A DNA stretch of 64,000 nt from an uncultured Ignavibacteria bacterium (GTDB lineage Bacteria > Zixibacteria > MSB-5A5 > UM-FILTER-46-8). The stretch covers positions 8,328 to 72,327 of the forward strand of contig CAZLVS010000011.1 in the NCBI GenBank assembly GCA_964563085.1. Reading direction: 5' to 3'. Under the pieces are notes generated by a model, which made no database searches, was not told the origin of the DNA, and saw only the letters and a program-made list of their open reading frames with translations. A program made the translations under genes and the position numbers. This document shows, in pieces, positions 15,659-61,848 of this stretch (its first letter is position 1; every line of letters starts with the position of its first letter).

Positions 15659-17713
15659 TTATTTCAGAAGCGTCATACGCTTTCTGTACACCTGGTCGTT
15701 GACCGTAAGTTTATACAAATATATACCAGATGCATACTCGGAAGCATCCCAGTTGACCGAATGATATCCGGCGTTCTGCTTGGTGTCGATCAGGGTTTCC
15801 ACTTTCTGGCCTAATAGATTGTAAACATCCAAACTGACCTCAGAACTGGCTGTTAACGAATACGCTATCTCGGTGCTGGCGTTAAAGGGATTCGGATAAT
15901 TCTGCTGCAATGATACTTTGTAAGGAATCGCTCCATCTTCATCCACACTCGCCGCTCCTACGTACATATTAACCGGAATATATACATGCTTTGCATACGG
16001 ATCGTTGCAGTACACTTCGAGCATACCGCGATAGATTCCCGCGGGATGATCTCCGGCATCACACGTTACGCTCACATCCAGAAATCCTCCGAGCGGCACA
16101 ACTCCATCATCGATATCCGTTGATAGCCAATCGAATTCCCCGGGAGGGGTACCCAAAATAAATTTCACTGCCTTGCCGTCAGTAGTGAATGGCTCATGAT
16201 AAGCGACCTCGAGCCCGACCGTCCCGGCGGCATTTTCCATCCCCGTGGAAGCCAGGTCAAGAGGACCATTGGGATCCATAGATTCGTACTGAAGAACAAC
16301 CGTATTGGGTTTAACCAAAACGATCTGGAATGTATATTTGCCATCATGCAATCCATCCGGAATATCCACCCAGGAAATAACAGCCGAATCGGAATTATTG
16401 GTATAGAAATAGATATTCGCATTGGAGTCGGGATTCGGAACGAGGTTCGCCCAGAATGGCGCTATGATATTGTTGGGGTCAGCATCGTTCGGGAAGCGGC
16501 GCGCATAGCTGGAGGAGGAGGTGCTATCGGTAAAAGAAGCCCATCCATTCGAACATACGCAAATACTGTTATAGCTATTTCCATAATAATTGAAATCGAA
16601 ACCCAGCGGAAGATGACCGGAATTACCATAAGAGGGGTTCCCCGAAAACTCTATAATCTGCCCTTCCTGGGTGATATCGACCCAGTCATAAACAGGACCC
16701 CCGGTAGTGTCAGAATGCAGCCAATAATATCCGAATGAATCAACAATCGATGATGGCTCTAAATCGATAGCGAAATAGAGGGCGCGATCGCCGGTGTTGC
16801 CCAGCTGCAGAATATCGGTAGATTGTCCGCCTTCTTCAACATTAACCTCAATATTCTCCAGACTGTAAGTCAGAACCGGATAATTGCTGTTGTAAATCGG
16901 TCTCTGGGTAAACCGCCCCATTCCGCAGGAATAATAGGGTATGTAGAAGTAGCCAGAGTCCCCCCAACTCGCTCCCCAGCTATTTTTGCATATCCAGGCG
17001 CCATCGCCATCGCACATATTATCATCCCAGCCAACGATCACGATTGCATGGTTGGACGGTTCACTACCCGGGCCGTCATAGCAATCCCAATGAAAACCAT
17101 CGAAAACCGTAAATGTCGACGAAACAGGGCCATTAATCAATGAATTTTTGATAGATTCCACGTTGTTGGGAATACTCTCTGCATCGTCAAGGAAAACCAT
17201 GGTGACGCAACTGTCCTGGCCGCAATTCATATCTTGAGCTCTGTACGGATAACATTCTTCTTCAACCGCGCCGGTGTTGAAGAAAAGATTATAAGCATAA
17301 TGAGCCGAACCGCCATTGCAGCTTCCGCCGTATAAGTTACAGTCCACCACCTGCTGTTCGGATAAATCCCATTCCACCGAATCGGCAATGATAATCGCTG
17401 ATTCAAACGCCCCTACACCGGCAAACGCCCAGCAGGATCCGCAATCTCCCTGGTTTTTCACGGGAGTAACGCCGCCGTTTTCGCGCCAATCCCAACGTTC
17501 ATCGTCCAGCAGCAATGGCGGAGGTGGCTGCTTATCTAATTCCTGGAAAAGTTTAATTTCCTCTTCTGAAGGTTCAAAACCAAGGGCGCCGATTCTGTTC
17601 TTCGGATCCTGATTATCTCCCTCAGCCGCATTAAGATAGGTTACGGCGAAGAACAGCTGCAGCAAAAATGCAGCCCTCACTCCCAGAGTTACGCTTACCG
17701 CCAATTTTCTCAT
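15659..17713 (-). CDS. Secreted papain-family (C1) cysteine peptidase with a T9SS type-A C-terminal sorting domain
   Basis: Signal peptide. Active-site 'QGDCGSCWAFAGVGAFE'. C-terminal 'NYPNPFNASTEIAYSL...GIYLYKLTVNDQVYRKRMTLLK' is a Por/T9SS CTD. Confidence 0.8.
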   Translation of the reverse strand: MRKLAVSVTLGVRAAFLLQLFFAVTYLNAAEGDNQDPKNRIGALGFEPSEEEIKLFQELDKQPPPPLLLDDERWDWRENGGVTPVKNQGDCGSCWAFAGVGAFESAIIIADSVEWDLSEQQVVDCNLYGGSCNGGSAHYAYNLFFNTGAVEEECYPYRAQDMNCGQDSCVTMVFLDDAESIPNNVESIKNSLINGPVSSTFTVFDGFHWDCYDGPGSEPSNHAIVIVGWDDNMCDGDGAWICKNSWGASWGDSGYFYIPYYSCGMGRFTQRPIYNSNYPVLTYSLENIEVNVEEGGQSTDILQLGNTGDRALYFAIDLEPSSIVDSFGYYWLHSDTTGGPVYDWVDITQEGQIIEFSGNPSYGNSGHLPLGFDFNYYGNSYNSICVCSNGWASFTDSTSSSSYARRFPNDADPNNIIAPFWANLVPNPDSNANIYFYTNNSDSAVISWVDIPDGLHDGKYTFQIVLVKPNTVVLQYESMDPNGPLDLASTGMENAAGTVGLEVAYHEPFTTDGKAVKFILGTPPGEFDWLSTDIDDGVVPLGGFLDVSVTCDAGDHPAGIYRGMLEVYCNDPYAKHVYIPVNMYVGAASVDEDGAIPYKVSLQQNYPNPFNASTEIAYSLTASSEVSLDVYNLLGQKVETLIDTKQNAGYHSVNWDASEYASGIYLYKLTVNDQVYRKRMTLLK

Positions 17714-17884
17714 GTTTCCTCCGTTTTAGTTGCTATTTTAAAGACTACTATAACCCCATCCCTATAAGTTAAGATACAAAATTAACAATTTTCAAGCTTC
17801 ATCTAATTTCCCTAAGAAGGTATCTATTTACTATATAATACATAATCTCTCACATGCAAGTATAAAACGAAGCCGCTTAAAGTT

Positions 17885-17995
17885 GTTCTCGTGGCGTCAA
17901 ACGTCCTCGTTTGACGCCTTCGGTAAGACGAGTTTACGCGCTTCTGGCGCGGTAGTCTGACCGCACCTGAGAAGGATGCGTTAGTCCAGAGGGTT
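17885..17995 (+). repeat. Copy B of the tandem-hairpin intergenic element (core 17893..17963)
   Basis: Perfect 11-bp hairpin ggcgtcaaacg-tcct-cgtttgacgcc, then ttcgg, then the second hairpin cggtaagac...gtctgaccg with an inserted cgcgc/gcgcg sub-hairpin. Downstream 'gatgcgttagtcca..g.gttgacc' also matches copy C. Confidence 0.5.
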
Positions 17996-18231
17996 GACCG
18001 CCGGAGCATACAGCAGCTTAATTAGTTAAAAACCATAACTTGTCTTTGTAAAAATTCAGTCGACGATATTTGTAGAACCTGGCGGATTAAGCAACTCGAA
18101 TTATTCCGCAAATTTTCGGAACAAAAGGAACGATAATAAAATTTGTATTTGTTTTGAATCAAATAACGAGTTATCTAATCATACAAACAAATGGGGAAAT
18201 CTAATAACTGAGTTTCGAAAGGAGAATTATA

Positions 18232-18543
18232 GTGATTAATATATCGGATAAAGCAAGTAAAGAAATTCAGAAAGTTTTGCAGAGCGATAGAGCTAAAGGC
18301 AAACATCTTATTATCTTCGCTAACGGATTCGGATGAGGCGGACCCAGTATGGGAATGGCTCTGGATGAGTCCAAAGAAGGTATGAAGGAATTAGAGTCGA
18401 ATGGTATAACCGCATACATCGATCCTGTTCTGTATGAGCAGGTTAAGCCGGCTGGCGATATCAGGATTGAATATGTTGACGATCCTTTGCGGGGGAAAGG
18501 ATTTCAGATAAATATCGGCAACAGCGGCGGATGCAGCTGCTAA
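18232..18543 (+). CDS. HesB/IscA-like Fe-S assembly-type protein with an in-frame TGA (18334..18336) at the conserved first Cys; candidate selenoprotein
   Basis: GTG start with a GGAG RBS 7 nt upstream. The translation 'VINISDKASKEIQKVLQSDRAKGKHLIIFANGFG-U-GGPSMGMALDE...FQINIGNSGGCSC' aligns to the IscA/HesB pattern (..GLRLGV..GGCSG......NPNA..CGCG), with TGA exactly where the first conserved Cys lies. The ORF track only reports the post-TGA half (18349..18543). Confidence 0.6.
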
Positions 18544-19050
18544 TTTACTGCAAAGGGGGGCTTCTGCCATATTTACGGCAATATCGTAATCCATATTAAT
18601 ACTACAAATGGGGATTAAACCTCTTGACAACCGCATTTACTTATCTATTTTTACGCTCGGTCTTGAGGAGTAAAGGCGTCGGGTGAGGGTGAAACTGTCT
18701 CAAAACCTCAAAAAGATTACTTCGTCGTCCCGCATTTCGCCCCGATGAAATCCCGCATTCTGCGGGACGCAGTCGGGGCAATGACAGCAGTAGGAGTCAT
18801 TGCGAGCCCGAAGCTTGCTGAGGGCGCGGCAATCTCCTATTCTCACGCAATGCGTTAAATTAGGGATTTGAGATAGCTTCGAGGGCACCCGACGGCACGA
18901 TTCAATGGAGGGACGCGCTTCGTCGCGTCCATTGGTTACTTTTTTAAACGAAGGATTTATTCCCGTCTTGTATTCTATTCACAGAATAAAGAGAAAATCT
19001 CCAATCCCGAACTTATAGATATAATAACAAAAATAGAATGTACAGGAAAA

Positions 19051-43215: not shown

Positions 43216-43459
43216 TTTGGCTTGTATTATTCATAAATCCTATCAACGGTAGCGGAAGCCTTGCGCTTCCGGCGTTTCTTTGAGATACTTTATTTCAATC
43301 TGCAAATGACCTGCTCCTATTGAACTCCCGAAGGACAGGCTTTCGGCTGCGTATTAATGGGTTTCATGAATTATCCGGGTTAGGCGTCAAATCGATTTAC
43401 CGATTAGAGAGATAAAAATATTCTTGCTATCTGAAATGATCGATTATTATAATATTATC

Positions 43460-43548
43460 GGAGAGATGTCCGAGTTGGTCTAAGGAGCGCGCCTGGAGAG
43501 CGCGTAGGGGCCACAAGCTCCTCCTGGGTTCGAATCCCAGTCTCTCCG
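43460..43548 (+). tRNA. tRNA-Ser (anticodon GGA), class II with long variable arm; CCA not encoded
   Basis: GGAGAGA acceptor paired with TCTCTCC, D-arm GTCCGAGTTGGTCTAAGGAG, anticodon stem CGCGC/GCGCG with loop CTGGAGA, long variable arm, and T-arm GGGTTCGAATCCCAG. Confidence 0.9.
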
Positions 43549-43715
43549 TTTTCAATCTTGCCGTAACCTGCGTACTGCACTCGATTTACGGTTGAACAAA
43601 GTTTAATATAGATACGTTTAATTTATGTTATGGTTATCGGAGGTACAGCTAAGGATGCTGTGCATCTTATTTGGGCTCAAAAAAACGATTGAGTCGAGAA
43701 TGAAGGATAGAAAAT

Positions 43716-45554
43716 ATGGCTAAAGAATCTACACTCGATTTTGTTTTACGGGAATTTACGGTAGTTCCAACGAAATCGTCCTATAATGTTGAAACGCTAA
43801 GGGCAATCGCTGATAAATTTCTTGACAGGATGCGTTCGGCGGGAGGACTGTCTGCCGCTCGCGAAAGGCTGTACAGACTTATAAGTATCCATCAATTTGA
43901 TACGTTTGCCGGCAGCGAGGAGCTCCAGGAACACCAAACCTTCAGAATGCGCGATTGCGCTACTGCTTTGAAATTTATGCTGAAAGAGAGTTCCGATAGA
44001 TTCGCCGGTTTCAGCGTGGCTAAAGCGCTCTATGATATCGCTCGAGACGTCCCGCGTCCGGACCTGCAGCCCGGATTCTACGCCGAGATGATTCATTTAT
44101 TCTTGGGATTGCAGGGCGTTGTTTCCGATATGGTCTTCGAGAATACCTACTTCGACACAAACCTGGAGGGGCGCAAGGCGGCTATCGCTCGTTCCGAACT
44201 CCTGGATAGATACTGGGAGGAAAAGATCGAAGTCCAGATCCACAAGTACCGGCATGGTTTGCAAGAAGATATTATTAAACTGCGGAGTGTCAACCGTGCA
44301 AGGATACTCTCGGCATTGGGAGGAAGCGAAGAGGATTGGTATGATTGGAGGTGGCAGTTAAGAAATATAGTACGGGATGCGGATAGCCTCGCTAAATTGG
44401 TCAATATCACAGAGGATGACTACGAAGCCATTACTCAAGCAAAGAAGAACAGGATACCGTTCGGTATAACCCCGTATTATGTCTCGCTGATGGATGAAAC
44501 TCCCGGTAGAAACGATACCGCGGTACGCGCCCAGGTTATACCATCTCCTGATTATGTGAAGGTTATGTCGGAAGCCAAAGGCAAGAGTATATGTTCCTTC
44601 GATTTCATGTTAGAAAAGGATACGTCGCCTATAGATTTAATAACCCGACGATATCCGTCTATCGTTATCCTCAAACCATATAACACCTGTCCTCAGATAT
44701 GCGTTTATTGTCAGAGAAATTGGGAGATAGAGGATGTACTGGCTAAAGGCGCCATGGCAGCTAAAGAATCTATTGAGGCTGCAATAGAATGGATAAAAGA
44801 TCATCCAGCTATCCATGATGTATTAGTGACCGGCGGTGATCCGCTTGCTCTCAATGAAAATGTGCTGAAACGGATACTGGATAAACTCTCAGAAGTTTCG
44901 AGCATCGAACGGATACGAATAGGTTCGCGCACGCCGGTAACTATGCCGATGCGGATTACTCCCGAGCTGGTGAATTTGCTTGCTTCCTATCGGATTCCGA
45001 TGAAGAGAGAAATTACAGTAGTCACTCATGTTGAACACCCCTATGAGATTACCGAAGATATGTTCAATGCTGTCGAACTCTTAAGAAAGAATGCCATCAG
45101 CGTCTATAATCAGAATGTTTATACTTTTTATGTTTCTCGGAGGTTTGAAGGCGTTTTACTTAGAAGGCTGCTCAAAAGAGTTGGCATCGAACCATATTAC
45201 ACGTTTAATGCCAAAGGCAAGGAAGAAACCGCGGATTTTCGCGTGCCGATTGCCAGATTGCTGCAGGAACAGAAAGAAGAAGCCAGATTGCTGCCCGGAC
45301 TGAGCCGCACCGACGAAGCCGTATATAATGTGCCCGGTCTTGGTAAGAATTACCTGAGGGCATTTCAACATAGGGACATCCTGTCCATTTTACCTGACGG
45401 TTCGAGAGTTTACAACTTCCATCCGTGGGAAAAGAACATCAGCATCCAAAAGACCTATGTCGGAACCGATGTGCCGATTCTGGAATACCTCAATCGGTTG
45501 GAATCAATCGGCGAGGATATTGCAGATTATGAAACTATCTGGTATTATTTCTAA
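43716..45554 (+). CDS. KamA-family radical SAM aminomutase homolog (lysine 2,3-aminomutase-like) with an approximately 200-aa N-terminal extension
   Basis: 'DWYDWRWQLRN', 'ITPYYVSLMD', CxxxCxxC 'CPQICVYCQR', 'VLVTGGDPL', 'IRIGSRTPVTMPMRITPELV' all match KamA. There is no C-terminal Cys cluster. Confidence 0.8.
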   Translation: MAKESTLDFVLREFTVVPTKSSYNVETLRAIADKFLDRMRSAGGLSAARERLYRLISIHQFDTFAGSEELQEHQTFRMRDCATALKFMLKESSDRFAGFSVAKALYDIARDVPRPDLQPGFYAEMIHLFLGLQGVVSDMVFENTYFDTNLEGRKAAIARSELLDRYWEEKIEVQIHKYRHGLQEDIIKLRSVNRARILSALGGSEEDWYDWRWQLRNIVRDADSLAKLVNITEDDYEAITQAKKNRIPFGITPYYVSLMDETPGRNDTAVRAQVIPSPDYVKVMSEAKGKSICSFDFMLEKDTSPIDLITRRYPSIVILKPYNTCPQICVYCQRNWEIEDVLAKGAMAAKESIEAAIEWIKDHPAIHDVLVTGGDPLALNENVLKRILDKLSEVSSIERIRIGSRTPVTMPMRITPELVNLLASYRIPMKREITVVTHVEHPYEITEDMFNAVELLRKNAISVYNQNVYTFYVSRRFEGVLLRRLLKRVGIEPYYTFNAKGKEETADFRVPIARLLQEQKEEARLLPGLSRTDEAVYNVPGLGKNYLRAFQHRDILSILPDGSRVYNFHPWEKNISIQKTYVGTDVPILEYLNRLESIGEDIADYETIWYYF

Positions 45555-45599
45555 TAACACGATATTATCAACCGAAGAGGCTGCTGCCCGGCGTATGGA

Positions 45600-46526
45600 A
45601 TGAGAAAGTACCTGCTTAAGATAGCCATTTGTATTCTAATTACTCTACTGATTTCGGAGTACACGATCGCTGGAGATGTTGCAGGGGATAAACTCACGAT
45701 TAACATCCGCGAATATAGATTCATGCTGAAGCCATCCAAATTTGAGAACCGCAGGAGAGCTGCGCGGGAACTCTGGCAGATGGTCAAAGGCTACGCGGCA
45801 ATCAACAATGTTGCGGTTGTCCAAAAGGATCGGATGTTGTTTGAGACACAACAGGAACTGGTTTTCCTGGACACGCAGAAGGGCGATATTTATCGAAACG
45901 GCTATCTGCTTTACAGAGTTACGGAAGCAGCGCGGGGGAGGAAGAAAAACCGATATGATTTAGTTCTGGAACGCCGTTATGCAGATTTACAAACGGTAAA
46001 GAACACTGACCTCGGAGATGGCCTAAGTATGAGTGCGCGGATAATCCTTAAAGAAGAACTTCATCCTGATTCCGTATACACAAACGCCTTCCGACCGGTT
46101 TATTCATTAAAGATTATTGCCGAGGATTTGATGACAAGCATAGGGAAGAACGTTGGAGATTATGCCGAAATCTTTCCAATTCTCTCCGAGTTGAACGTCC
46201 CTGCGGATAGTGAACTCAAGCCTGTTAATGATATGGTATATATGGAATTGGGATATTCGCCGGGAGTCTTTAATTTCGGCGATGGGATAGAATCCGAAAT
46301 AAATATCAGCGTCATGTATGAATGGGATAAAAGGGGAGCGATTGTTGGCGAGCTCTTCTTCCGGCACGAAATTGTTGACTACGAAAATCTGCCTCCCGGA
46401 GCGCAGAAATGTACTGAATTTTTCAAGGGGCTTGCCGGCGAGCGGCAGGATTGGATACTGTATGATTTTTCGAAGGCGGGATTTACTTACGAGCATTCCT
46501 CCCGCAATAACAATGGTGATAAATAA
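45600..46526 (+). CDS. Hypothetical secreted protein (signal peptide; no recognised domain)
   Basis: 'MRKYLLKIAICILITLLISEYTIAG' signal. 308 aa. Confidence 0.5.
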   Translation: MRKYLLKIAICILITLLISEYTIAGDVAGDKLTINIREYRFMLKPSKFENRRRAARELWQMVKGYAAINNVAVVQKDRMLFETQQELVFLDTQKGDIYRNGYLLYRVTEAARGRKKNRYDLVLERRYADLQTVKNTDLGDGLSMSARIILKEELHPDSVYTNAFRPVYSLKIIAEDLMTSIGKNVGDYAEIFPILSELNVPADSELKPVNDMVYMELGYSPGVFNFGDGIESEINISVMYEWDKRGAIVGELFFRHEIVDYENLPPGAQKCTEFFKGLAGERQDWILYDFSKAGFTYEHSSRNNNGDK

Positions 46527-46567: not shown

Positions 46568-47479
46568 TCAAATAGCAACTTCTATACAGCGGTAGGAAAG
46601 TTCATTGAGGGGTAGTTCGCCCAGCAGAAGAACCGTATCGCCGCCTCCGGCGCCGGTAGGTTTAGCATAACCGCCGTTGTCCAATGCCCATCGCTTGAGC
46701 TCATCATGCACGGGGATACGATAGCTTATCCCTGCACTTGAACAGCATTTCGTAACTAAAGACGTGAACTCATCCAGGATGTCATAAAGGTCGGGCGGAG
46801 GTATCCTAAACCATTTCTCAGCCAATTCATCGCTTTTGTCAATCAGGCTTTTAAGACTTTTATTTTTCCTCCCGGTGTTTTTTATCCATTGGTTGAATTT
46901 CGTAACGAACTCACGGGTATCCGCTGACTTCCCGGTCCAAACCAGATTAATCGGTATCTTATAATCCGGATTGGGAGTATGCAATTGGTCCATGAAGAAA
47001 CCGTCCCGGTTACGCTTGAATACAATCGGTTTACCATAGGCGCAGACCGCGACATCGGCCCCGCTCCCCCGACCGCCTTGGGCGATTGTATGTGCATCGA
47101 TGGCGTATATCGCTGCCGAATACCTGTTCATCTCCCACGGTAAACCGGCGCGCTCAAATCGGAGTGCAATAACGCCGGCTGCTTCAGCGGCGGAGGAACC
47201 GATCCCCAGCTTAACCGCAGCGCCGCTGCCATCGCGAAAGTAAAAATCCGATCTGTCAATATCAACGCCCTGCAGGGGATGAGTGTGCTCGTAACCATCC
47301 AGTTCGGGAACAGGATATTGTATGGCGTTTTTCACAACCGGATTGGTGTTCTCCGCAGTTGGCGCATTCGATTCAGTGATTTTAAGGAAGCGAGGGACGG
47401 GGAAGAGAACAGCGCTTCCACCATAGAGAACAGCGTATTCCCCCGACAACATTACTTTTCCTGGCATGGTTACAGTCAT
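46568..47479 (-). CDS. GHMP-family kinase, most likely phosphomevalonate kinase (short form) of the mevalonate operon
   Basis: 'GKVMLSGEYAVLYGG', 'KLGIGSSAAEAAGV', 'GAGGGDTVLLLG'. Operon context with mvaD/HMGR-MVK/idi-2. Confidence 0.65.
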   Translation of the reverse strand: MTVTMPGKVMLSGEYAVLYGGSAVLFPVPRFLKITESNAPTAENTNPVVKNAIQYPVPELDGYEHTHPLQGVDIDRSDFYFRDGSGAAVKLGIGSSAAEAAGVIALRFERAGLPWEMNRYSAAIYAIDAHTIAQGGRGSGADVAVCAYGKPIVFKRNRDGFFMDQLHTPNPDYKIPINLVWTGKSADTREFVTKFNQWIKNTGRKNKSLKSLIDKSDELAEKWFRIPPPDLYDILDEFTSLVTKCCSSAGISYRIPVHDELKRWALDNGGYAKPTGAGGGDTVLLLGELPLNELSYRCIEVAI

Positions 47480-48456
47480 TTTTCTATTGAAATTATCTCG
47501 GCGCCTCCAGCCGGTTTACAGGAAATAAAGTGTGATTCACCGAGGTGATGCAGTATATTCTTAGTAATCTTTTCAGAATCACTCTGCCTGCATAAGACAA
47601 TAACGTTAGAACCGGCATCAACCGTGAAGTAGGCTTGTATACCGCTCTTTTCGCGAATGGAGCGAATTCCCCTAATAATTCTAAAGGTTGAATCATTCCA
47701 GTACAAAAGCGGTGGGCGTGATGCCATCATACAGCAATGCATGGCAAGCGCGTTTTCTTCCATTATACTGCCGATTGCTGCGAAATCATCCACTTCGATT
47801 GCAGACAGCATTTTCCGGTAATCCTCTCGGGCTTGCTTCACCCAACTGGAGTAATAGGGCGAAGTCTCCGCGCAGCGACGCATACCGAGCGATGAGGGCG
47901 TATCCTTTTGCTCGGAATGAGCGAGTAATACTATCATGCTCCATGGAACATCTTGCGGCTCTTTCAGTAATCTTGCGGACGGATCATCGTTGAGTGGAAA
48001 GGCTGATAATCCCCCGGTAATAGAACGCGCTGCCGAACCGCTTCCCTGGCGCGCTAATTTAGATAATTCCCTGTCGGAAAGCTTTCTTTCTGAGAATCCG
48101 CTCAAAGCTTTTGCTAATGCCGCGAATCCCGACGCGCTCGATGCCAGACCGGAAGATGTTGGGAAGCTGTTTTTCGATTCCAACAAAAAACTGCCCGCGA
48201 TTAGCCCTTTGTCCCGCCAGAGATCAAGATATTTCACGAGACGATGGTTTACTTCACCGGAAGTTTCCGCACCATTAAGGATGAATATATCGTTAGATTC
48301 TTCGGTTCGCGTTATGGTTGTTTCGGTAGTAAGTTTATCCAGAGCGAGCGAAATAGAGGGAGTGGCGGGAATATTCCCCGCTGTATCTTCCCGTTTTCCC
48401 CAATATTTTATCAAAGCGATATTCGAATATGCCCGGGCGATCACCCGCCGTATCAC
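47476..48456 (-). CDS. mvaD: Diphosphomevalonate decarboxylase
   Basis: 'AYSNIALIKYWGKRED', 'SSGLASSASGFAALA'. Confidence 0.85.
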   Translation of the reverse strand: MIRRVIARAYSNIALIKYWGKREDTAGNIPATPSISLALDKLTTETTITRTEESNDIFILNGAETSGEVNHRLVKYLDLWRDKGLIAGSFLLESKNSFPTSSGLASSASGFAALAKALSGFSERKLSDRELSKLARQGSGSAARSITGGLSAFPLNDDPSARLLKEPQDVPWSMIVLLAHSEQKDTPSSLGMRRCAETSPYYSSWVKQAREDYRKMLSAIEVDDFAAIGSIMEENALAMHCCMMASRPPLLYWNDSTFRIIRGIRSIREKSGIQAYFTVDAGSNVIVLCRQSDSEKITKNILHHLGESHFISCKPAGGAEIISIEK

Positions 48457-50759
48457 CGCAGCGCTCCCAACGTAAATGGAAACACCATCGGGAAATCATG
48501 GGATAGAGATTCCATCCAATCGAACTGGCTCCCGGGTTCGACCAAACCGATGACCGCGCCGCCGCCTCCGCTGCCGGTTAGTTTAGCGCCAATTGCGCCG
48601 TTTTCCAGCAAAAGCTCCACAGCCCTATCCAGCGCCGGAGTAGATACGCCCAGTTTTGCCAGAAGCTCATGATTCCGGAACATCAGTTTTCCGATTTCGT
48701 AGGTGTCACCGGTTCCCAATGCTATTCCGGCATCGACAGTCAGATTCCCGATATCTTCCAGGATACTGTTAACGTACTCCGGTTTTTGGTCGCGGAACCT
48801 CGCCACTTTCTTAACCAGCTCTATCGTTCTGGCGCCCGGTTCCACCAGGCATATTACGCCGCTTACCGGAGAGGGAACCTGGATCGGTAAGAACTCCCGC
48901 GGAGGTCCTTTACGGAACCAGAGCACCCCCTCAGAGAGAACGGTAGCCGCATCCATCCCGCTGGGATGGCCATGGAAAATCGCCTCCAGGTTCTGAACTT
49001 CATCAAAGAAATCGCTGTCCCATCTTTTTGACCGCCTCAGATGCTTATATTGCCGTAAAGCTGAGCACAGAGCGATTGAAAATGCTGCCGACGAACCTAA
49101 ACCCATGCCGGGAACCAGTTCGGATTCGATCTGGATGGCGATAGGTTCATTTCTTAGATCATATATTTCTAAGGCTACATCCACCGCATTTGAAAACAAT
49201 TGGATATCCTGGTCCGATTTGGGAACGGAAAACACCTTTTTAAAATGTGGATGAAGAAACCGGGGACCGTCAGGGTCCCTGGTAACTTTTAGCTTAATGC
49301 CGATATTGATGGCAGCGGCAATCCCGGGATAGTTGTAAACGGTAGCGTGTTCGCCAAACAGTACGATTTTACCGGGTGCGAATGTTTCTACTGGCAATTC
49401 ATCCTCTTCCTCTGTTCGTTTGGGCTGCTTCTGCAGCTTACGATATATATCCTCCGCAACCGTAATTTTAACCTCGCCCCGCCTTATCATCTCCTGCGCG
49501 ACTTCTTCCACGGCATTAGGAGGTACGCCAACGCTAACCGCAACACTGCGAGCATGCAGCGCCATGTGCCCCTTCTGAATGCCAACTGTGCTTAACGCCA
49601 ACAGGGCGGCGAAATTCTGCCCCAAGCCTACTGCGCTCAGCAATCCGGCTAATTGGCTGGCGTTTTCCACGCCGCTTATTGCGCGTAGAATTTGCACTCC
49701 GGGATGAGCTTTGACCGCGCCGCCCACGCTGCCGGTTTGCAGCGGCAGTTCGATTTCACCATGCAGACATCCGTTGGAAATCTTGTAGGTGGTAAGACCT
49801 CGGTAGATTCCATCTCGAGCGGCATATGCATGCCCGCCGGCTTCGATTGCTCGCCAGTCCTGACCCAATGCCAGGGCAGCGGCGCACAGTCCGTTAAATA
49901 TACCTTTGTTATGTGTCGCAGCCCGATAGGGATCCACATGCGCCAACCTATCAGCCTCAACCAAACGATGCGCCACCTCCTCGCCGGTGAATTCCTTCGT
50001 GGTTAGGTGTTCGAACGGCAATGTGAATTCGGCCCGAGCGATTCGCTTATCAGCGAGATTGGAAAGGATGCGAAGGTGCACACGGCCTCCGGTCACCATT
50101 TCAATCAGTGAGCCGACCGCTTCGCATGCGTAGTTGACCGCATTTGCTCCCATCGCCTCACAGACGTTAAAAAGCAGATGAACCACCAGCATCTCGCCGA
50201 CGCCTTCCCCACCATCCAAAATCCTGGTCTCGATATCAAAAACGCCGCCGCCTCTCTGCACCATTCGGGGATTTACCAGGTTCGCTTGAGCTATAATTTC
50301 ATCTTTATAATTCCCAATCTGTCTGACAGCTTCCTGCGGGTCTTTCAGGTCGAGTACCTGCACCTGCCCGATCATCACCGGATCGTTGATTCGGGTACGA
50401 AATCCTCCGCCCTTGCGAATTATCAGCGCCGCTTTTGATGCTGCGGCTATTATTGATGCTTCCTCGATCGCCATGGGAACCAGATACTCCCTGCCATCGA
50501 CCAGAAAATTCAATCCCAATCCGAGGGGTAAGCCGAAGACTCCCACGGCATTCTCCACCATGTTAACTGCATGCTTCATTCTCAGAGCGTTACCATTGCG
50601 GAGTTGCGAAACTTGTTCATCGTTTAGATTAAAACTCCGCGCCAGAAATGCGAGCCGTTGTTCAACCGACAATCGGTAAAATCCCGGTATCCGCGAAGTT
50701 CTGAATTCGGTTCCTCCGATAGGAGGTTTCTTAATGAATCGAAATCTATCCATTATCAA
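48453..50759 (-). CDS. Fusion protein: class II HMG-CoA reductase (N-terminal, about 430 aa) plus mevalonate kinase (C-terminal, about 330 aa)
   Basis: HMGR-II motifs 'ENAVGVFGLPLG', 'EAMGANAVN', 'GSVGG'. After the linker 'KRTEEEDELPVE' come MVK motifs 'APGKIVLFGEHATVYNYPGIAAAI', 'GMGLGSSAAF', 'KLTGSGGGGAVIGL'. There is no internal stop or start. Confidence 0.8.
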   Translation of the reverse strand: MIMDRFRFIKKPPIGGTEFRTSRIPGFYRLSVEQRLAFLARSFNLNDEQVSQLRNGNALRMKHAVNMVENAVGVFGLPLGLGLNFLVDGREYLVPMAIEEASIIAAASKAALIIRKGGGFRTRINDPVMIGQVQVLDLKDPQEAVRQIGNYKDEIIAQANLVNPRMVQRGGGVFDIETRILDGGEGVGEMLVVHLLFNVCEAMGANAVNYACEAVGSLIEMVTGGRVHLRILSNLADKRIARAEFTLPFEHLTTKEFTGEEVAHRLVEADRLAHVDPYRAATHNKGIFNGLCAAALALGQDWRAIEAGGHAYAARDGIYRGLTTYKISNGCLHGEIELPLQTGSVGGAVKAHPGVQILRAISGVENASQLAGLLSAVGLGQNFAALLALSTVGIQKGHMALHARSVAVSVGVPPNAVEEVAQEMIRRGEVKITVAEDIYRKLQKQPKRTEEEDELPVETFAPGKIVLFGEHATVYNYPGIAAAINIGIKLKVTRDPDGPRFLHPHFKKVFSVPKSDQDIQLFSNAVDVALEIYDLRNEPIAIQIESELVPGMGLGSSAAFSIALCSALRQYKHLRRSKRWDSDFFDEVQNLEAIFHGHPSGMDAATVLSEGVLWFRKGPPREFLPIQVPSPVSGVICLVEPGARTIELVKKVARFRDQKPEYVNSILEDIGNLTVDAGIALGTGDTYEIGKLMFRNHELLAKLGVSTPALDRAVELLLENGAIGAKLTGSGGGGAVIGLVEPGSQFDWMESLSHDFPMVFPFTLGALR

Positions 50760-51841
50760 ATTCCTTGTTTATCGAGCCATCCAAAGTTCAAAAGCCATTC
50801 TCTCAATTCACCGGTGAATATCCTGGGAATCCTCTTTAGTTCGGTTAAGTCGGCGGCGCCGGTCAAAAGCATAGCTGTCTTCAGCTCATGTATCATTTGC
50901 TCCATAAATTCGGCAGCTCCGTCTTTGCCATTATCAAGAAAACTAAGTAATATAGGGCGGGCAAATCCGGCGATATCCGCTCCCACAGCGATCGCTCGCG
51001 CAGCATCCAGGCCGTTTTCAATTCCGCCTGATGCCATTATGCAAGCCTTCTCATTTCGGATCCTGCGCGCCGCAATAAGACTGAATGCGGTCGGTATCCC
51101 CCAATCGGAGAATGTTTTGCCAGTTTGTTTGAGGAGTTTATCCGCCGCCCGATACATCTCCACTTTGGTCCAAGAAGTCCCCCCGGCTCCGGATACATCC
51201 AGATATTTAATCCCGATTTTCGATAGTTTCTTCAAACTCTCAGGGTCTATCCCGGCTCCCGTCTCTTTAACCATGACTTTGCCGTCTATCTTATCATTCA
51301 ATGCAGCCAAAGCATCGAGTAAACCGCGAAAATCCCGATGACCCTCATCCTGAATTAGTTCCTGTGCCGCATTCAGATGGACGCAGATTCCATCAGCTTC
51401 GATATCATCCATCAGACCAACTACGGCATCCAGGGGATACTCCCGTAACTCTCCAGCGCCGATATTACCCAGCAGGACGCCATCCGGTATCCATTTACGA
51501 ACCGCGAAATCATCTTTCATCTCCGGGTGGCGAAATATCACTCGCTGACTGCCCACACCGAATGCGATTCCGAACTCCGATGCGGTTTCTGCCAGGCCGC
51601 GATTCATCTCCCCGGCGAATTCGGCGCCTCCGGTCATGCCGGTAATCATCAGCGGATATTTCAGTTTTTTCCCGAAGAATTCAACTTCGGTCCGGATATC
51701 CCTTAAATCCAACTCCGGAAGGGCGCAATGCAGCAGGATTATATCACCCAGCATGGTGTTCCGACGGTGTTTCACTTCTTCCTCGGCAACAATCCGTAAA
51801 TGCTCCGATTTCCGCCTGGATATGGTCACATCATTTTCCAT
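50756..51841 (-). CDS. fni: Isopentenyl-diphosphate delta-isomerase, type 2 (FMN-dependent)
   Basis: TIM-barrel IDI-2 pattern 'PLMITGMTGG', 'FGVGSQR', 'VKETGAGI', 'LDVSGAGGTSW'. Confidence 0.85.
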   Translation of the reverse strand: MENDVTISRRKSEHLRIVAEEEVKHRRNTMLGDIILLHCALPELDLRDIRTEVEFFGKKLKYPLMITGMTGGAEFAGEMNRGLAETASEFGIAFGVGSQRVIFRHPEMKDDFAVRKWIPDGVLLGNIGAGELREYPLDAVVGLMDDIEADGICVHLNAAQELIQDEGHRDFRGLLDALAALNDKIDGKVMVKETGAGIDPESLKKLSKIGIKYLDVSGAGGTSWTKVEMYRAADKLLKQTGKTFSDWGIPTAFSLIAARRIRNEKACIMASGGIENGLDAARAIAVGADIAGFARPILLSFLDNGKDGAAEFMEQMIHELKTAMLLTGAADLTELKRIPRIFTGELREWLLNFGWLDKQGI

Positions 51842-53432: not shown

Positions 53433-56400
53433 ATGAAACGTTATCCAGCGCCTGCAATTTTGATTTTGTTGGCAATCCTCTTGCTGAGTCTGAATTCGAC
53501 AGGATTCGCGATGCAAGCAGACACAAAAGGGGAAGCGCTTTACGAGCTGAAAGTCAATTACCCCGGAGTTTCTACTTATCAATCCGGTAAACGAATTACC
53601 AGCTTATGGGGCATAACTTTCGGCTACGGCGCCAATCCGCAGGCAACCGCAGAGAACTTCCGGATGAATTATTCCGAAATCTTCGGTGTGGCACCGGCAG
53701 ATTTGAAACCCCACAGTCTCCTTCCCGACCAACGTCATACTCAACCCGTGATGTACAATCGGGAGAATGATTCTTATAAATTCACCCTGGTTTATTACAG
53801 CCAGTATAAAGAGGATATTCCGGTATTCCGTTCCGAACTCAGATTGCTGGTTCGCAACGAAGCCAATTATCCTTTGACGCTGGCGCGTTCGGCTTTGAAA
53901 GACTTAAAGGACTTCCGGGTTCCCTCCGGAGCAACCTTAAACAAAGGCTTAGCCGAAACAGCCGCGAAATCTTTCAATCCCAATCTGGATTACTTCGAAG
54001 AACCTCGTTTGGTTATCTGGGCTGGCGCCAACGAGGAAGCTGCTGAACCGAGATTAGCAATGGAAATTATCGGCGACAACAATAGGCCTGCTACTGACGA
54101 TTATGAAAAGTGGTTACTATTGGTCGATGCTTTAACCGGTGAGATACTGTATTCCGAAGATATGATTCTTAACGTTGATGTCGATGGCAACGTTAGCGGC
54201 AGAGCCACAGACAATTTCGCCGCAGAGATCTGCGACGATGAGGTCTCCTTCGGCATGCCTTATTCCCGTGTTTACATTCAGGGCGGAAATACTTCTTATG
54301 CCGATGAGTTCGGTGATTTCACCATACCGTTCGGTGGATCAGCGCCGGTGGATGTTTACTCCCATTTGCGCGGCTCCTGGTTCCGTGTGTATAACGAAGC
54401 CGGCGCCGAAGCGGAACTGGACACCACCGTAACCCCTCCGGGTCCGGCGAATTTCCTGCACAATTCATCCAATAGCAATGAATATGTGAGGGCGCAGGTT
54501 AACGGATACCTGCACGCCAACGTCGTTAGGGATTTTACACTGACTTATAATCCCTCCTACCCGGGTTTACAGCAAACCGAGTTTCCGGTAAATGTCAACA
54601 TCAACAGCAGTTGTAACGCTTATTACGATTATCAATCCATCAACTTCTACCGCTCCGGCGGCGGATGCCCGAATACAGCGTTTGGAACCGTGGTTCACCA
54701 CGAATACGGTCACCATTTGGTTGCCATGGCTGGAAGCGGCCAGGGGCAGTACGGCGAGGGTATGAGCGATTGCATGGGTGTAATGATTACCGATGATCCC
54801 GGTCTCGCTTACGGTTTCCTCGGAAACTGTAATGAACCGCTAAGGAACGCCGACAACAATAAGCAATATCCCTGCAGCGGCGGAATACATGACTGCGGAC
54901 AGCTCCTTTCCGGATGCGTTTGGGATACGCGCAACGCCTTAATGGCAAACTATCCCAACACCTACATGGATATTCTGGCTAATTTGGCGGTTAACGCTGT
55001 CTTACTGCACACAGGGGATCTGATCACTCCACAGATTACTATAGATTACCTGACCCTGGATGATGATAACGGTAATATCTATGACGGAACTCCTCATTAT
55101 AATGAGATCTGTTCCGGCTTCGGCGCTCATAATATGGATTGCCCCGATCTGCAATTGATCGCCTTCGATTATCCCAACGGTCTGCCGGAACTGTTTGATC
55201 CGGATGGCGGAACCACGATTCGCGTGGAAGTTTCAGGCATTACCGGTTCACCGGAGCCCGGCACCGGAATCATGTATTACAATGATGGCGGCGGATGGGA
55301 ACAGCAGCCGATGGATGTTGTATCTCCGAATGTTTACGACGCTGTCTTCCCGCCGTTTGAGTGCGGGCTGGTGATCGAATATTACTTCAGCGCAGAAACC
55401 ACCGACGGTTTCGTAGCTTATGATCCCTCGGGCGCTCCCGGAACCACTTACTCGGGTGTAGCCGCTCATGGTATGATCACGGTGTTCGAAGACGATTTCT
55501 CGACTGACCAGGGCTGGACAGGTTTGGGTGGTCAGGGCGAATGGACAATTGGACCTTGTATGGGCGGTAATGGCGACGACTATTACGGCGGTCCCGATCC
55601 TTCCGAAGACCATTCACCGACTTCGGATAACAGGGCGCTCGGTAACGACATGACAGCCGGCGATGGTGATTATGAAAACTACCTCGGAACCACTTACTGG
55701 GTAACCTCTCCCAATATCGATTGCTCCGGCGTCTATGCATTGCAGTTGAGCTTCTGGCGGTGGCTCGGAGTAGAACGGGATTGGTACGATGAAGCCTACT
55801 TCCAGGCATACAACGGTTCTTCCTGGATCACTCTTTGGGAAAATGGCAGCGAGACTATCGACGAAGCTTCATGGAGCGAGCAGAATTACGACCTCACAGG
55901 AATCGCCGACGACAATCCCAACTTCAAGATCAGATTCGGAATAGGGCCCACTGATGGTTCCTGGCAGTACTGCGGGTGGAATATCGATGATGTGCAAATC
56001 GTGGCTTATACCTGCGAACCGTCTGCAGATATCACTGTGGATATGATACCGGATAATCCTCCGATCGAAGTTCAGCCGGGCGGATATTTCACCTATACCG
56101 GAATACTGACCAATAACACTGCTCAACCTCAGAGCTCCGATGTTTGGGTGATGTTGGATGTGCCGGGTTATGGCAGTTACGGACCGGTTCAGCAGTTCAA
56201 CAATGTGCCTCTGGGGCCGAACCAAACCTTAAGTTATGAAGGCGCGCGGCAGAATATACCGGGATTCGCACCGTTGGGCGAGTATGATTATATCGCTTAC
56301 TGCGGCGACTATCCCAATTCGCCGGTCGATTCGGCATCCTTCACATTCACCGTTGTTCAGGGCATCGGCGGAGACGCTGACGGATGGATTTTGAACGGCT

Positions 56401-56693
56401 GGTTCAATGATGATATCGAAACTCTGCCTTCAAGGACCGAACTATTGGGCAACTTCCCGAATCCGTTTAATCCGACCACAACCTTCAGCTATGCCTTAGC
56501 TGATGAATCCAATGTGTCTCTGGAAGTCTACAATCTGATGGGACGTAAGGTAGCGACGGTATTTGAAGGTCATCAGGAAGCCGGTTACAGGACAGTTCAG
56601 TGGAATGCAGGAGATTATTCCTCAGGCGTCTACTTCTACAAGCTGACCGTTGATGACCAGGTATTTACCAAGCGTATGACCTTGTTGAAGTAA
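53433..56693 (+). CDS. Secreted thermolysin/fungalysin-like (M4/M36-type gluzincin) zinc metalloprotease, 1086 aa, with a T9SS C-terminal sorting domain
   Basis: Signal peptide. 'VVHHEYGHH' HExxH plus downstream 'GEGMSDCMG' (the E..SD third-ligand motif of M4/M36). Pre-CTD domain shared with 60199..61848 and 63103..64000. CTD 'NFPNPFNPTTTFSYAL...GVYFYKLTVDDQVFTKRMTLLK'. Confidence 0.8.
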   Translation: MKRYPAPAILILLAILLLSLNSTGFAMQADTKGEALYELKVNYPGVSTYQSGKRITSLWGITFGYGANPQATAENFRMNYSEIFGVAPADLKPHSLLPDQRHTQPVMYNRENDSYKFTLVYYSQYKEDIPVFRSELRLLVRNEANYPLTLARSALKDLKDFRVPSGATLNKGLAETAAKSFNPNLDYFEEPRLVIWAGANEEAAEPRLAMEIIGDNNRPATDDYEKWLLLVDALTGEILYSEDMILNVDVDGNVSGRATDNFAAEICDDEVSFGMPYSRVYIQGGNTSYADEFGDFTIPFGGSAPVDVYSHLRGSWFRVYNEAGAEAELDTTVTPPGPANFLHNSSNSNEYVRAQVNGYLHANVVRDFTLTYNPSYPGLQQTEFPVNVNINSSCNAYYDYQSINFYRSGGGCPNTAFGTVVHHEYGHHLVAMAGSGQGQYGEGMSDCMGVMITDDPGLAYGFLGNCNEPLRNADNNKQYPCSGGIHDCGQLLSGCVWDTRNALMANYPNTYMDILANLAVNAVLLHTGDLITPQITIDYLTLDDDNGNIYDGTPHYNEICSGFGAHNMDCPDLQLIAFDYPNGLPELFDPDGGTTIRVEVSGITGSPEPGTGIMYYNDGGGWEQQPMDVVSPNVYDAVFPPFECGLVIEYYFSAETTDGFVAYDPSGAPGTTYSGVAAHGMITVFEDDFSTDQGWTGLGGQGEWTIGPCMGGNGDDYYGGPDPSEDHSPTSDNRALGNDMTAGDGDYENYLGTTYWVTSPNIDCSGVYALQLSFWRWLGVERDWYDEAYFQAYNGSSWITLWENGSETIDEASWSEQNYDLTGIADDNPNFKIRFGIGPTDGSWQYCGWNIDDVQIVAYTCEPSADITVDMIPDNPPIEVQPGGYFTYTGILTNNTAQPQSSDVWVMLDVPGYGSYGPVQQFNNVPLGPNQTLSYEGARQNIPGFAPLGEYDYIAYCGDYPNSPVDSASFTFTVVQGIGGDADGWILNGWFNDDIETLPSRTELLGNFPNPFNPTTTFSYALADESNVSLEVYNLMGRKVATVFEGHQEAGYRTVQWNAGDYSSGVYFYKLTVDDQVFTKRMTLLK

Positions 56694-60198: not shown

Positions 60199-61848
60199 CT
60201 ATTTTAGTAAATGCATCCTCTTAGCCATAATCTGGTCGCCAGCCTGGAGCCGGTAGAAATAGACGCCGCTGGAGTGGTGAGAAGCATCCCAGGAAACAGT
60301 ATGCTGTCCTGCCGCAAGCCCGCCATTCACCAGAGTCGCGACCTTCTGCCCTAACAGGTTATGAATCTCAAGCTTTACGTTTTTGGCTTCGGACAGATTG
60401 AAAGTGATATTCGTTTGGGCGTTAAACGGATTGGGATAATTGCCCAAAAGTTCGAATTCCGCAGGGTTGCCCTTAACCGAATTCCATCCGCCTTCCACAT
60501 TCCACAAGTTACCGGAACTCTCTGACCTGTCACGTCCGGCAGCAACTGTAAATTGGAAGGAATCGGCAACATATATATTATCGGGGTAGTCACCGGCATT
60601 TGAGATATAATCGTAGGCTCCGGTTGGCGCAAAATTAGGCACGCTTTGATTAAGGTGCGCATTTATGCTCTGCCCCGAGTTAAGATATATATCCTGAAAA
60701 GTCCGCAACGGTCCATATTCGCCGTAGCCGGGAACATTCAGCATTAGCCAAACATCGGTCGTGACCGGATCGACTCCGGCATTGGTAAGGAATCCGGTTA
60801 ATCCGAATTGACCTCCCGGCGGTACTTCGATCGGATAATCATCAGGGATCATCGATATTTCAATATCCGGTGAAGATTCCTCGAACCAGCTCGATAAAAC
60901 CTCATAAGTCCAGCACTGTATACGCCCCCATTGCTGCGGTGTTAAGTCAGTCCAGCACGGACTTCCACCCAGAGTGCCGTAACTCATGTAGTTTTCGGGA
61001 GAAGTGTCACCCCAGGGGACTCCGCAGCAAGGATCGGTCCCGCCCGGATCGTAGCAGTAGTAATTGATAGGCGTTGGCGGCGTATCCGAACAGAGGTCGC
61101 CGGTGATGTCGGCATCCTGACCGTCCGCCTGCTCCCAGCACTCCCCGCACTGCGGTACTTCGCTTACACCATGGTGAGTATGCCACAAGCCTATCGTATG
61201 CCCGATTTCATGGACCAAAACATTGTCATGGAAAGGAGTGGGATAAACATGCCCTTCGCTCAGTACAACACCGCCCTGGTCGGAAAGAGGAAGACGGTAA
61301 TCATCCCATGGGAACGTACCGAAAGATCCGCCAGTAGTTCCGGTAATGTATATATTCATTTGCGATTCGGGATTGAGGGCATAAACTCGCTTCATCGCTT
61401 CCGCATCCGCATAATAACGGAATCGGGTAGAATTCACGAATCTGTAATCATAGACGAATTGAATTCTAACCTGTAGGTATTCCTCGTTAAGATGGTTTAC
61501 CATATCTTCCAGCGTAGCTTCATCGGTAGCGCAATTGCTTCCGTTGTCCTCGCAGAAGATGTGAAAATAAAGGCGAATATAAGCAATCGGATCATCGGGA
61601 TCAGGTATTGCCGCATCGCGATTCTCCGGCTCGTCACACGGTCCGTTGTAGCAATCATGATATAGCATACCATATTTCTCTATTTGTCCCTTTTTGTAGA
61701 TTTCCCAGGTTTCACAGAAACCATCCACATCCGCCAATGCGGTTGAAGAAGCGAGGGATATAGCGAAAAGCAGGAACGCTGCGAATGATATCCTCACTGC
61801 ATTAGTTGAGATTGTAGTCATCTCTTTTGGGTTGCGCTTCATGTTCAT
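60199..61848 (-). CDS. Secreted metzincin (M43/pappalysin-ulilysin-like) zinc metalloprotease with a T9SS C-terminal sorting domain
   Basis: Signal peptide. 'HEIGHTIGLWHTHH' (HExxHxxGxxH). Cys-rich region. Shared pre-CTD domain. CTD 'NYPNPFNAQTNITFNL...GVYFYRLQAGDQIMAKRMHLLK'. Confidence 0.8.
   Translation of the reverse strand: MNMKRNPKEMTTISTNAVRISFAAFLLFAISLASSTALADVDGFCETWEIYKKGQIEKYGMLYHDCYNGPCDEPENRDAAIPDPDDPIAYIRLYFHIFCEDNGSNCATDEATLEDMVNHLNEEYLQVRIQFVYDYRFVNSTRFRYYADAEAMKRVYALNPESQMNIYITGTTGGSFGTFPWDDYRLPLSDQGGVVLSEGHVYPTPFHDNVLVHEIGHTIGLWHTHHGVSEVPQCGECWEQADGQDADITGDLCSDTPPTPINYYCYDPGGTDPCCGVPWGDTSPENYMSYGTLGGSPCWTDLTPQQWGRIQCWTYEVLSSWFEESSPDIEISMIPDDYPIEVPPGGQFGLTGFLTNAGVDPVTTDVWLMLNVPGYGEYGPLRTFQDIYLNSGQSINAHLNQSVPNFAPTGAYDYISNAGDYPDNIYVADSFQFTVAAGRDRSESSGNLWNVEGGWNSVKGNPAEFELLGNYPNPFNAQTNITFNLSEAKNVKLEIHNLLGQKVATLVNGGLAAGQHTVSWDASHHSSGVYFYRLQAGDQIMAKRMHLLK

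Follow-up and report, generated by a model that had tools for sequence, protein, structure and literature searches.

The question raised by this locus is whether two consecutive steps of the mevalonate pathway are encoded as one polypeptide. The window, a stretch of 64,000 nucleotides from contig CAZLVS010000011.1 of an uncultured Ignavibacteria bacterium, carries on its minus strand an open reading frame (ORF) that a sequence-only reading had described as a complete class II 3-hydroxy-3-methylglutaryl-coenzyme A (HMG-CoA) reductase (HMGR) running uninterrupted into a complete GHMP-type mevalonate kinase (MVK). The ORF list and the Pfam and NCBIfam scans bore this out: the longer version of the frame (48453..50759, minus strand, 768 aa from an upstream TTG at 50759) contains no internal stop codon and no frameshift, and its two enzyme domains follow each other in the order stated. 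The ATG at 50753 is the likelier start because of the junction with the upstream gene fni; the start context is TGATAATG, the junction reads GGA ATT TGA TA ATG GAT, and the fni stop codon ends 2 nt short of the ATG. Gene callers give 766 aa for the identical protein. Residue numbers used here are those of the 768-aa version, while the structural model was made for the 766-aa version. The product is very probably a genuine bifunctional biosynthetic enzyme, predicted from its sequence to convert HMG-CoA to mevalonate-5-phosphate, with the kinase flexibly tethered to the reductase flap and the fusion derived from the loss of a stop codon.

The reductase half possesses the full set of class II features. 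Pfam HMG-CoA_red (PF00368) covers residues 32-403 (E 3.6e-100, 336 bits) and the NCBIfam model TIGR00532 for class II HMGR covers residues 20-403 with 374.8 bits, above its equivalog cut-off of 259.95. Residues 22-435 align with the HMGR of Pseudomonas mevalonii (1qax), the structural prototype of class II and the best match in the PDB (E 1e-107). In this prototype, the catalytic roles of Glu83, Lys267, Asp283 and His381 are established. They correspond in the alignment to E100, K285, D301 and H398 of the fusion, all four being invariant in alignments of 19 (A1) and 81 (A2) fused proteins. As the alignment reaches residue 418 of the 428 in the prototype chain, the C-terminal flap with the catalytic His398 is complete; helices at 392-442 were predicted for this flap region in the AlphaFold2 (AF2) model. 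The domain, preceded by no more than about 20 residues without conservation, is of the soluble type and lacks the membrane anchor of class I. The catalytic residues and the flap are thus shared with the P. mevalonii enzyme, which differs in being standalone (428 aa), NADH-specific and catabolic. By its sequence, this half would reduce HMG-CoA to mevalonate with NAD(P)H as cofactor.

The second half is equally complete. It was matched by the NCBIfam mevalonate kinase model TIGR00549 over residues 461-739 with 205.5 bits (equivalog cut-off 163.05), by Pfam GHMP_kinases_N at residues 526-609 and GHMP_kinases_C at 680-742, and by the PDB mevalonate kinases 2x7i, 2hfs and 1kkh at about 1e-24. The motifs GK..GEH (K464, E470/H471), GLGSSA (G553-A558, S557), E592, SG.D (D603) and KLTGSGGGG (K726-G734) are present, align with those of the solved kinases and are invariant in the same 19- and 81-sequence alignments. 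The catalytic roles of these GHMP motif residues have been established from the rat and human mevalonate kinases. Standalone kinases such as those of Staphylococcus aureus (2x7i) and Methanocaldococcus jannaschii (1kkh) and the metagenomic 321-aa protein P0136 share the fold motifs and the length of this half, which is 49% identical to P0136 over its full length, but they are separate polypeptides. Judged by these motifs, the kinase half would phosphorylate mevalonate to mevalonate-5-phosphate at the expense of ATP.

A real fusion could nevertheless hold one half that is degenerate or a regulatory pseudo-enzyme, with its activity supplied by another gene, for instance that of the 303-aa GHMP kinase at the end of the operon. 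The best match of this downstream kinase is indeed the mevalonate kinase model, at 82.7 bits, and the kinase domains of the fused group to which the window protein belongs (group A, described below) carry an unusual GEHATVYNYPG motif. The score of the downstream protein is sub-threshold, however, while the fused kinase clears the cut-off, and neither half shows any variation in its catalytic and nucleotide-binding motifs among 81 sequences. Moreover, the 49%-identical P0136 is the sole kinase in the 11-kb locus around its fni-MVK pair. A pseudo-enzyme is therefore considered very unlikely. The coordinates of the fused gene, its domains and its neighbours are collected in Table 1.

Table 1. Features of the fused gene and of the adjoining mevalonate pathway genes in the window.
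Feature	Coordinates	Strand	Remarks
Fused HMGR-MVK gene	48453..50753	minus	766 aa from ATG at 50753; stop codon 48453-48455
Class II HMG-CoA reductase domain, including C-terminal three-helix flap	49425..50702	minus	residues ~20-445
Inter-domain linker	49398..49424	minus	~residues 446-454, PKRTEEEDE; charged, variable, low model confidence
Mevalonate kinase (GHMP) domain	48456..49397	minus	residues 455-768, from the conserved LPVE..APGK N-terminus
Type 2 isopentenyl-diphosphate isomerase gene (fni), upstream	50756..51841	minus	TIGR02151, 375.6 bits (cut-off 281)
Diphosphomevalonate decarboxylase (MVD) gene, downstream	47476..48456	minus	TIGR01240, 267.4 bits (cut-off 171); Pfam MVD-like_N, MDD_C
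Divergent 303-aa GHMP kinase gene, last of the operon	46568..47479	minus	Pfam GHMP_kinases_N and GHMP_kinases_C

Separate hmgr and mvk genes could have been joined falsely in the assembly, through a base left out or a stop codon lost, and the sequence-only reading had asked for a frameshift at the junction to be checked. The window probably comes from a metagenome assembly, and the two genes are separate and closely adjacent in Myxococcus and Archangium, so that one error could mimic a fusion. Against this, the identical 766-aa protein was found on contigs assembled separately from the runs SRR7048218, SRR7048219, SRR7048225 and SRR7048228, all four with the same operon of fni, HMGR-MVK, MVD and kinase genes. 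Among the 120 best homologue clusters, more than 110 (43-95% identity) showed the three-Pfam order PF00368, PF00288 and PF08544, as did every full-length match listed, full length being 745-795 aa at 92-100% coverage; the closest of the matches listed is 95% identical and stems from a Zixibacteria metagenome-assembled genome. When GTDB species were scanned with one genome each, HMGR and MVK lay in one frame without a stop in 71 of the best 80 loci, which were examined by an ORF check. Near-identical fused proteins occur in five or more cultured species or strains of Cryobacterium, so that isolates carry the continuous frame as well; WP_105036172.1 is a Cryobacterium orthologue from a cultured strain. 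With an identical ORF in four run assemblies and a frame so widely conserved, an artefact was rejected as practically inconceivable.

The implied rarity of the architecture was not borne out by these counts. By record label, which is the source of all taxon names of relatives given here, the fused loci span at least six phyla, with Gammaproteobacteria, Acidobacteriota, Calditrichota, Ignavibacteria, Planctomycetota and Actinomycetota among the labels. Gammaproteobacterial carriers include Woeseiaceae, Rhodanobacteraceae, Wenzhouxiangellaceae, Nevskia, Salinisphaera and Dokdonella; further carriers are labelled Rhodospirillaceae and Balneolaceae, and those of the Actinomycetota include Nakamurella and the isolate Cryobacterium aureum Hh31. 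A query with the junction alone (residues 405-520) gave 82 matches in a library of 1.84 billion representatives clustered at 50% identity. Group A was collapsed there to one representative (P0045) and about 20 more matches ran across the junction, a result that is to be read as a weak lower bound and not as a census.

The acidic linker quoted in the sequence-only reading is present as KQPKRTEEEDE followed by LPVETFAPGK. The standalone kinase P0136 begins about 9 residues ahead of the conserved LPxE..APGK; this element therefore belongs to the kinase, which leaves only some 10 residues, KQPKRTEEEDE, for the true linker. From A433 in the last flap helix to G461 of the GK motif, the spacing is 27 residues in the group A sequences sampled, with variable sequence and two exceptions (29 and 32), and 26 in P0101. 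In the second fused group (group B), the same spacing is 30-39 residues. The AF2 model, a monomer of 766 aa built on 81 sequences, has a mean predicted local distance difference test score (pLDDT) of 83.4, a linker pLDDT below 50 (residues 444-450) and a predicted template modelling score (pTM) of 0.56. This model indicates two well-folded domains without a confident mutual orientation, as would fit a tether rather than a fixed interface.

The absence of a stop codon between the domains, as claimed from the sequence, stands; the accompanying claim that there is no start or ribosome binding site between them does not hold in full. Leu455 is encoded by an in-frame TTG preceded by GAGGAAGAGG, and an internal start is possible in principle. 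At this position, relatives have TTA, ATT, CTG or codons for other residues, without the purine run. Since the TTG and its preceding run are not kept in relatives, a conserved internal start for a separate kinase was rejected; by its sequence, the purine run is probably a coincidence arising from Glu and Asp codons.

The fused gene is the second of four tightly packed minus-strand genes in the order fni, HMGR-MVK, MVD and GHMP kinase. The GTG start of the MVD gene overlaps the stop codon of the fused gene (GTGA, 4 nt), and the gene for the 303-aa kinase in turn overlaps the MVD gene by 4 nt (ATGA). By elimination, the last gene presumably encodes the phosphomevalonate kinase (PMK). A scan of the operon for promoters and terminators gave sites no more numerous than in shuffled sequence. 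Converging on the end of the operon are genes for a 612-aa radical S-adenosylmethionine (SAM) protein and then a 308-aa ORF without Pfam match (43716-46526, plus strand), which hold the same position in independently assembled contigs.

Acting as a bifunctional biosynthetic enzyme, the N-terminal HMGR would reduce HMG-CoA to mevalonate, which the C-terminal MVK would then phosphorylate with ATP. The kinase is predicted to hang off the last helix of the mobile C-terminal flap of the reductase by the flexible linker of about 10 residues. Together with the presumed PMK, the translationally coupled operon of fni, HMGR-MVK and MVD genes would cover all steps from HMG-CoA to isopentenyl diphosphate (IPP) and dimethylallyl diphosphate (DMAPP). 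The likely benefits would be co-translation, a fixed 1:1 stoichiometry and active sites that lie close together. In addition, ATP-driven removal of mevalonate could pull the reversible class II reduction towards synthesis and render it effectively irreversible.

Several points weigh against this assignment. The 303-aa kinase stays under every NCBIfam cut-off (82.7 versus 163 bits for TIGR00549, 51.6 versus 500 bits for the archaeal-type PMK model), which leaves the completeness of the pathway presumptive. HMG-CoA synthase and thiolase were not found in the window, in which most ORFs of at least 180 aa were scanned. The model, being a monomer, is silent on the obligate HMGR dimer and on how two fused dimeric enzymes would assemble. 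The cofactor helix fits neither canonical motif in full, so that the cofactor call is weak, and the NCBIfam title of TIGR00532 contains the word 'degradative'.

The last two points bear on the direction of the reductase. An HMG-CoA lyase neighbour is a mark of catabolic HMGR gene context. In favour of a reductase half that runs the oxidative way, as the name implies and as in P. mevalonii, are the best PDB match, to the catabolic enzyme of that organism, and the established reversibility of class II HMGRs. On the other hand, a mevalonate-consuming kinase is fused to the reductase, and the adjoining genes encode MVD, a kinase and the type 2 isomerase, with HMG-CoA lyase not among them. The gene setting is biosynthetic, and the 'degradative' label of TIGR00532 goes back to the P. 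mevalonii enzyme. As for the cofactor, PMC13488460, citing Miller and Kung 2018, gives Dx(V/L)xxxL as the motif of NADH-dependent and (H/Y)xSxxxR as that of NADPH-dependent HMGRs. Aligned to 1qax, the helix has the sequence N163-P-R-M-V-Q-R169 in the window protein. It lacks the Asp of the NADH motif, D146 of 1qax corresponding to N163 and L148 to R165, while R169 is the position-7 Arg of the NADPH motif and is invariant among the fused proteins. Tentatively, the enzyme probably uses NADPH, alone or alongside NADH. Gene context and cofactor motif led to the rejection of a catabolic role, which is held to be extremely improbable.

Returning to the bifunctional biosynthetic enzyme, its origin was considered from the distribution of fused and unfused relatives. 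Fused group A, with the labels Zixibacteria, Ignavibacteria and some Calditrichota, is 48-95% identical to the window protein and has the operon order fni, HMGR-MVK, MVD and PMK. Fused group B is labelled Gammaproteobacteria, Acidobacteriota, Calditrichota, Actinomycetota and Planctomycetota; its reductase half is 42-51% and its kinase half 27-35% identical to the window protein. Both group B loci checked, those of Woeseia and Cryobacterium, have the genes in the order MVD, PMK and HMGR-MVK. A separate NUDIX gene, probably encoding a type 1 isomerase, lies downstream of the fused gene in Woeseia (L047:8180-8836).

In neighbour-joining trees of each domain, unfused lineages separate groups A and B, and the main group B subclades recur in both trees. 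A bootstrapped neighbour-joining MVK tree that included standalone kinases recovered group A plus two standalone kinases in 100 of 100 replicates and group B alone likewise (100/100), whereas a single clade of all fused proteins appeared in none (0/100). Because the MVK tree never groups all fused proteins and the gene order also differs, we infer that fusion took place independently at least twice, or once with several fissions afterwards; the domain trees are distance trees without outgroup rooting, and the count of events is provisional. The wide taxonomic scatter of group B suggests horizontal transfer within it.

The fusion would most plausibly have arisen when neighbouring hmgr and mvk genes lost the stop codon that separated them. 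In Myxococcus, the two genes are adjacent and separate, with a frame shift and an overlap of 32 nt. At three loci labelled Archangium, Myxococcaceae and Oscillatoriaceae (L004, L005 and L067), they lie in the same frame with a single stop and a few codons between them, a state that by its sequence would be a one-mutation precursor of the fusion, or its remnant. The Myxococcus and Archangium loci share the gene order fni-hmgr-mvk with the window, and their proteins are 50-52% (HMGR) and 31-33% (MVK) identical to the window protein, but a stop codon stands between the two genes; this arrangement looks like the pre-fusion state, or one after fission. The gene of P0136 (L085:3918-5966) follows directly after fni with no HMGR gene between, and P0136 is nested inside fused group A in the tree, which suggests fission or deletion of the HMGR half.

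A three-part ORF, HMGR-MVK-NUDIX, was found on a 1.57-Mb contig of a Pseudomonadota metagenome-assembled genome (L078:5983-8859, plus strand; P0216, 936 aa). Its NUDIX domain, probably a type 1 IPP isomerase, occupies residues 805-934 (E 3e-19). With this contig as its single observed occurrence, the triple fusion may alternatively reflect a lost stop codon.

The linkage could also be more than a tether, in that mevalonate is channelled between the active sites, or that ATP binding by the kinase, or its feedback inhibition by downstream isoprenoid phosphates, is relayed to the flap that bears the catalytic His. The direct joining of the kinase to the flap domain, the 27-residue spacing fixed in most group A sequences despite their variable sequence, and the at least two origins of the fusion, suggesting selection for physical linkage, are in line with such a coupling. 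The lack of a confident inter-domain arrangement in the AF2 model (by pTM and linker pLDDT), the variable linkers of group B, the standalone versions within the same clades and the small, soluble nature of mevalonate speak against it, and coupling is regarded as unlikely. That the linkage was selected independently at least twice owing to flap-mediated coupling, be it by channelling or by relayed feedback inhibition of the kinase, is more doubtful still. If true, such coupling would mean that the bacterial mevalonate pathway has a control point not recognised before, and would offer a ready-made engineering module.

The simpler case, a bifunctional enzyme with a flexibly tethered kinase, has counterparts among known systems. 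MvaE, in which acetoacetyl-CoA thiolase is joined to HMGR, is a studied fusion of the mevalonate pathway. Like the window protein, the MvaE of Enterococcus faecalis is a natural bifunctional enzyme of this pathway containing a class II HMGR, and its HMGR part (PDB 7m1z, 7m3h) matches residues 26-434 of the fusion at 1e-81. It differs in that its partner is a thiolase, N-terminal to the HMGR, and its steps are non-consecutive, whereas the window protein has a C-terminal GHMP kinase and consecutive steps; a thiolase domain was not found in the HMGR-MVK fusion in the Pfam and NCBIfam scans. The IspDF fusion of the methylerythritol phosphate (MEP) pathway is another natural and widespread fusion of two isoprenoid-precursor enzymes, as cited in PMC13001223. 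It belongs to another pathway, has other folds and, unlike HMGR-MVK, joins non-consecutive steps.

The PDB holds no chain with both HMGR and MVK domains. In the full-text literature, with most subscription journals outside the search, no description or characterisation of a natural HMGR-MVK fusion was found, which fits the statement of the sequence-only reading that none had been described. Nor did keyword searches find such a fusion in PMC6107057, PMC13001223, PMC13488460 and PMC13412983, which comprise an evolutionary study of 2018, two reviews of 2026 on bacterial isoprenoid pathways and on the mevalonate pathway, and a survey of bacterial HMGR diversity, also of 2026. On fusion, the first of these (Hoshino and Gaucher 2018, PMC6107057) states no more than that the sequences of fused partners were trimmed off before the trees were built. 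The HMGR-MVK fusion is thus likely undescribed in the literature. The further question whether databases would show the fusion to be common and already annotated received a divided answer: it is common and its architecture is visible there, but annotation is mostly as reductase only. In NCBI, almost every member is named 'hydroxymethylglutaryl-CoA reductase, degradative', and in IMG mostly 'hydroxymethylglutaryl-CoA reductase'; one Cryobacterium flavum record is named 'reductase /mevalonate kinase'. The fusion is real, widespread and catalogued but poorly named. To merge adjacent genes whose products act in consecutive steps is logical, and the fusion is an uncharacterised domain combination within a known class of fused isoprenoid-pathway enzymes, not very surprising to the specialist.

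Natural fusions of pathway enzymes are taken as a sign that their partners are functionally linked, and they supply parts to metabolic engineering. In HMGR-MVK, the reduction step is combined with the first step that consumes ATP, and hundreds of environmental bacteria and some cultured ones carry this fusion. Since the product names mention the reductase only, mevalonate kinase would be scored as missing from the carriers in pathway reconstructions based on names. In practice, the annotation can be corrected and a candidate for a compact two-step module is obtained; conceptually, the gain would be modest unless kinetic coupling is real.

Some further features were observed elsewhere in the window. 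A 375-aa ORF at 2628-3755 (minus strand) gave no Pfam match at E ≤ 1e-5. A region of about 1.3 kb between divergently oriented gene blocks (17714-19050) contains only one ORF of at least 70 aa (81 aa, 18391-18636); it coincides with the minimum of the cumulative GC skew, and no Rfam family reached its gathering score there. A tRNA-Ser (GGA) was predicted by ARAGORN at 43459-43549 (plus strand), and the Rfam scan of the whole window at gathering thresholds gave zero matches, the tRNA family included. In keeping with an origin of the window in the FCB superphylum or in Zixibacteria, the Por_Secre_tail sorting domain of type IX secretion ends three large proteins, encoded at 15659-17713 (minus), 53433-56693 (plus) and 60199-61848 (minus), one of which is a papain-family protease.

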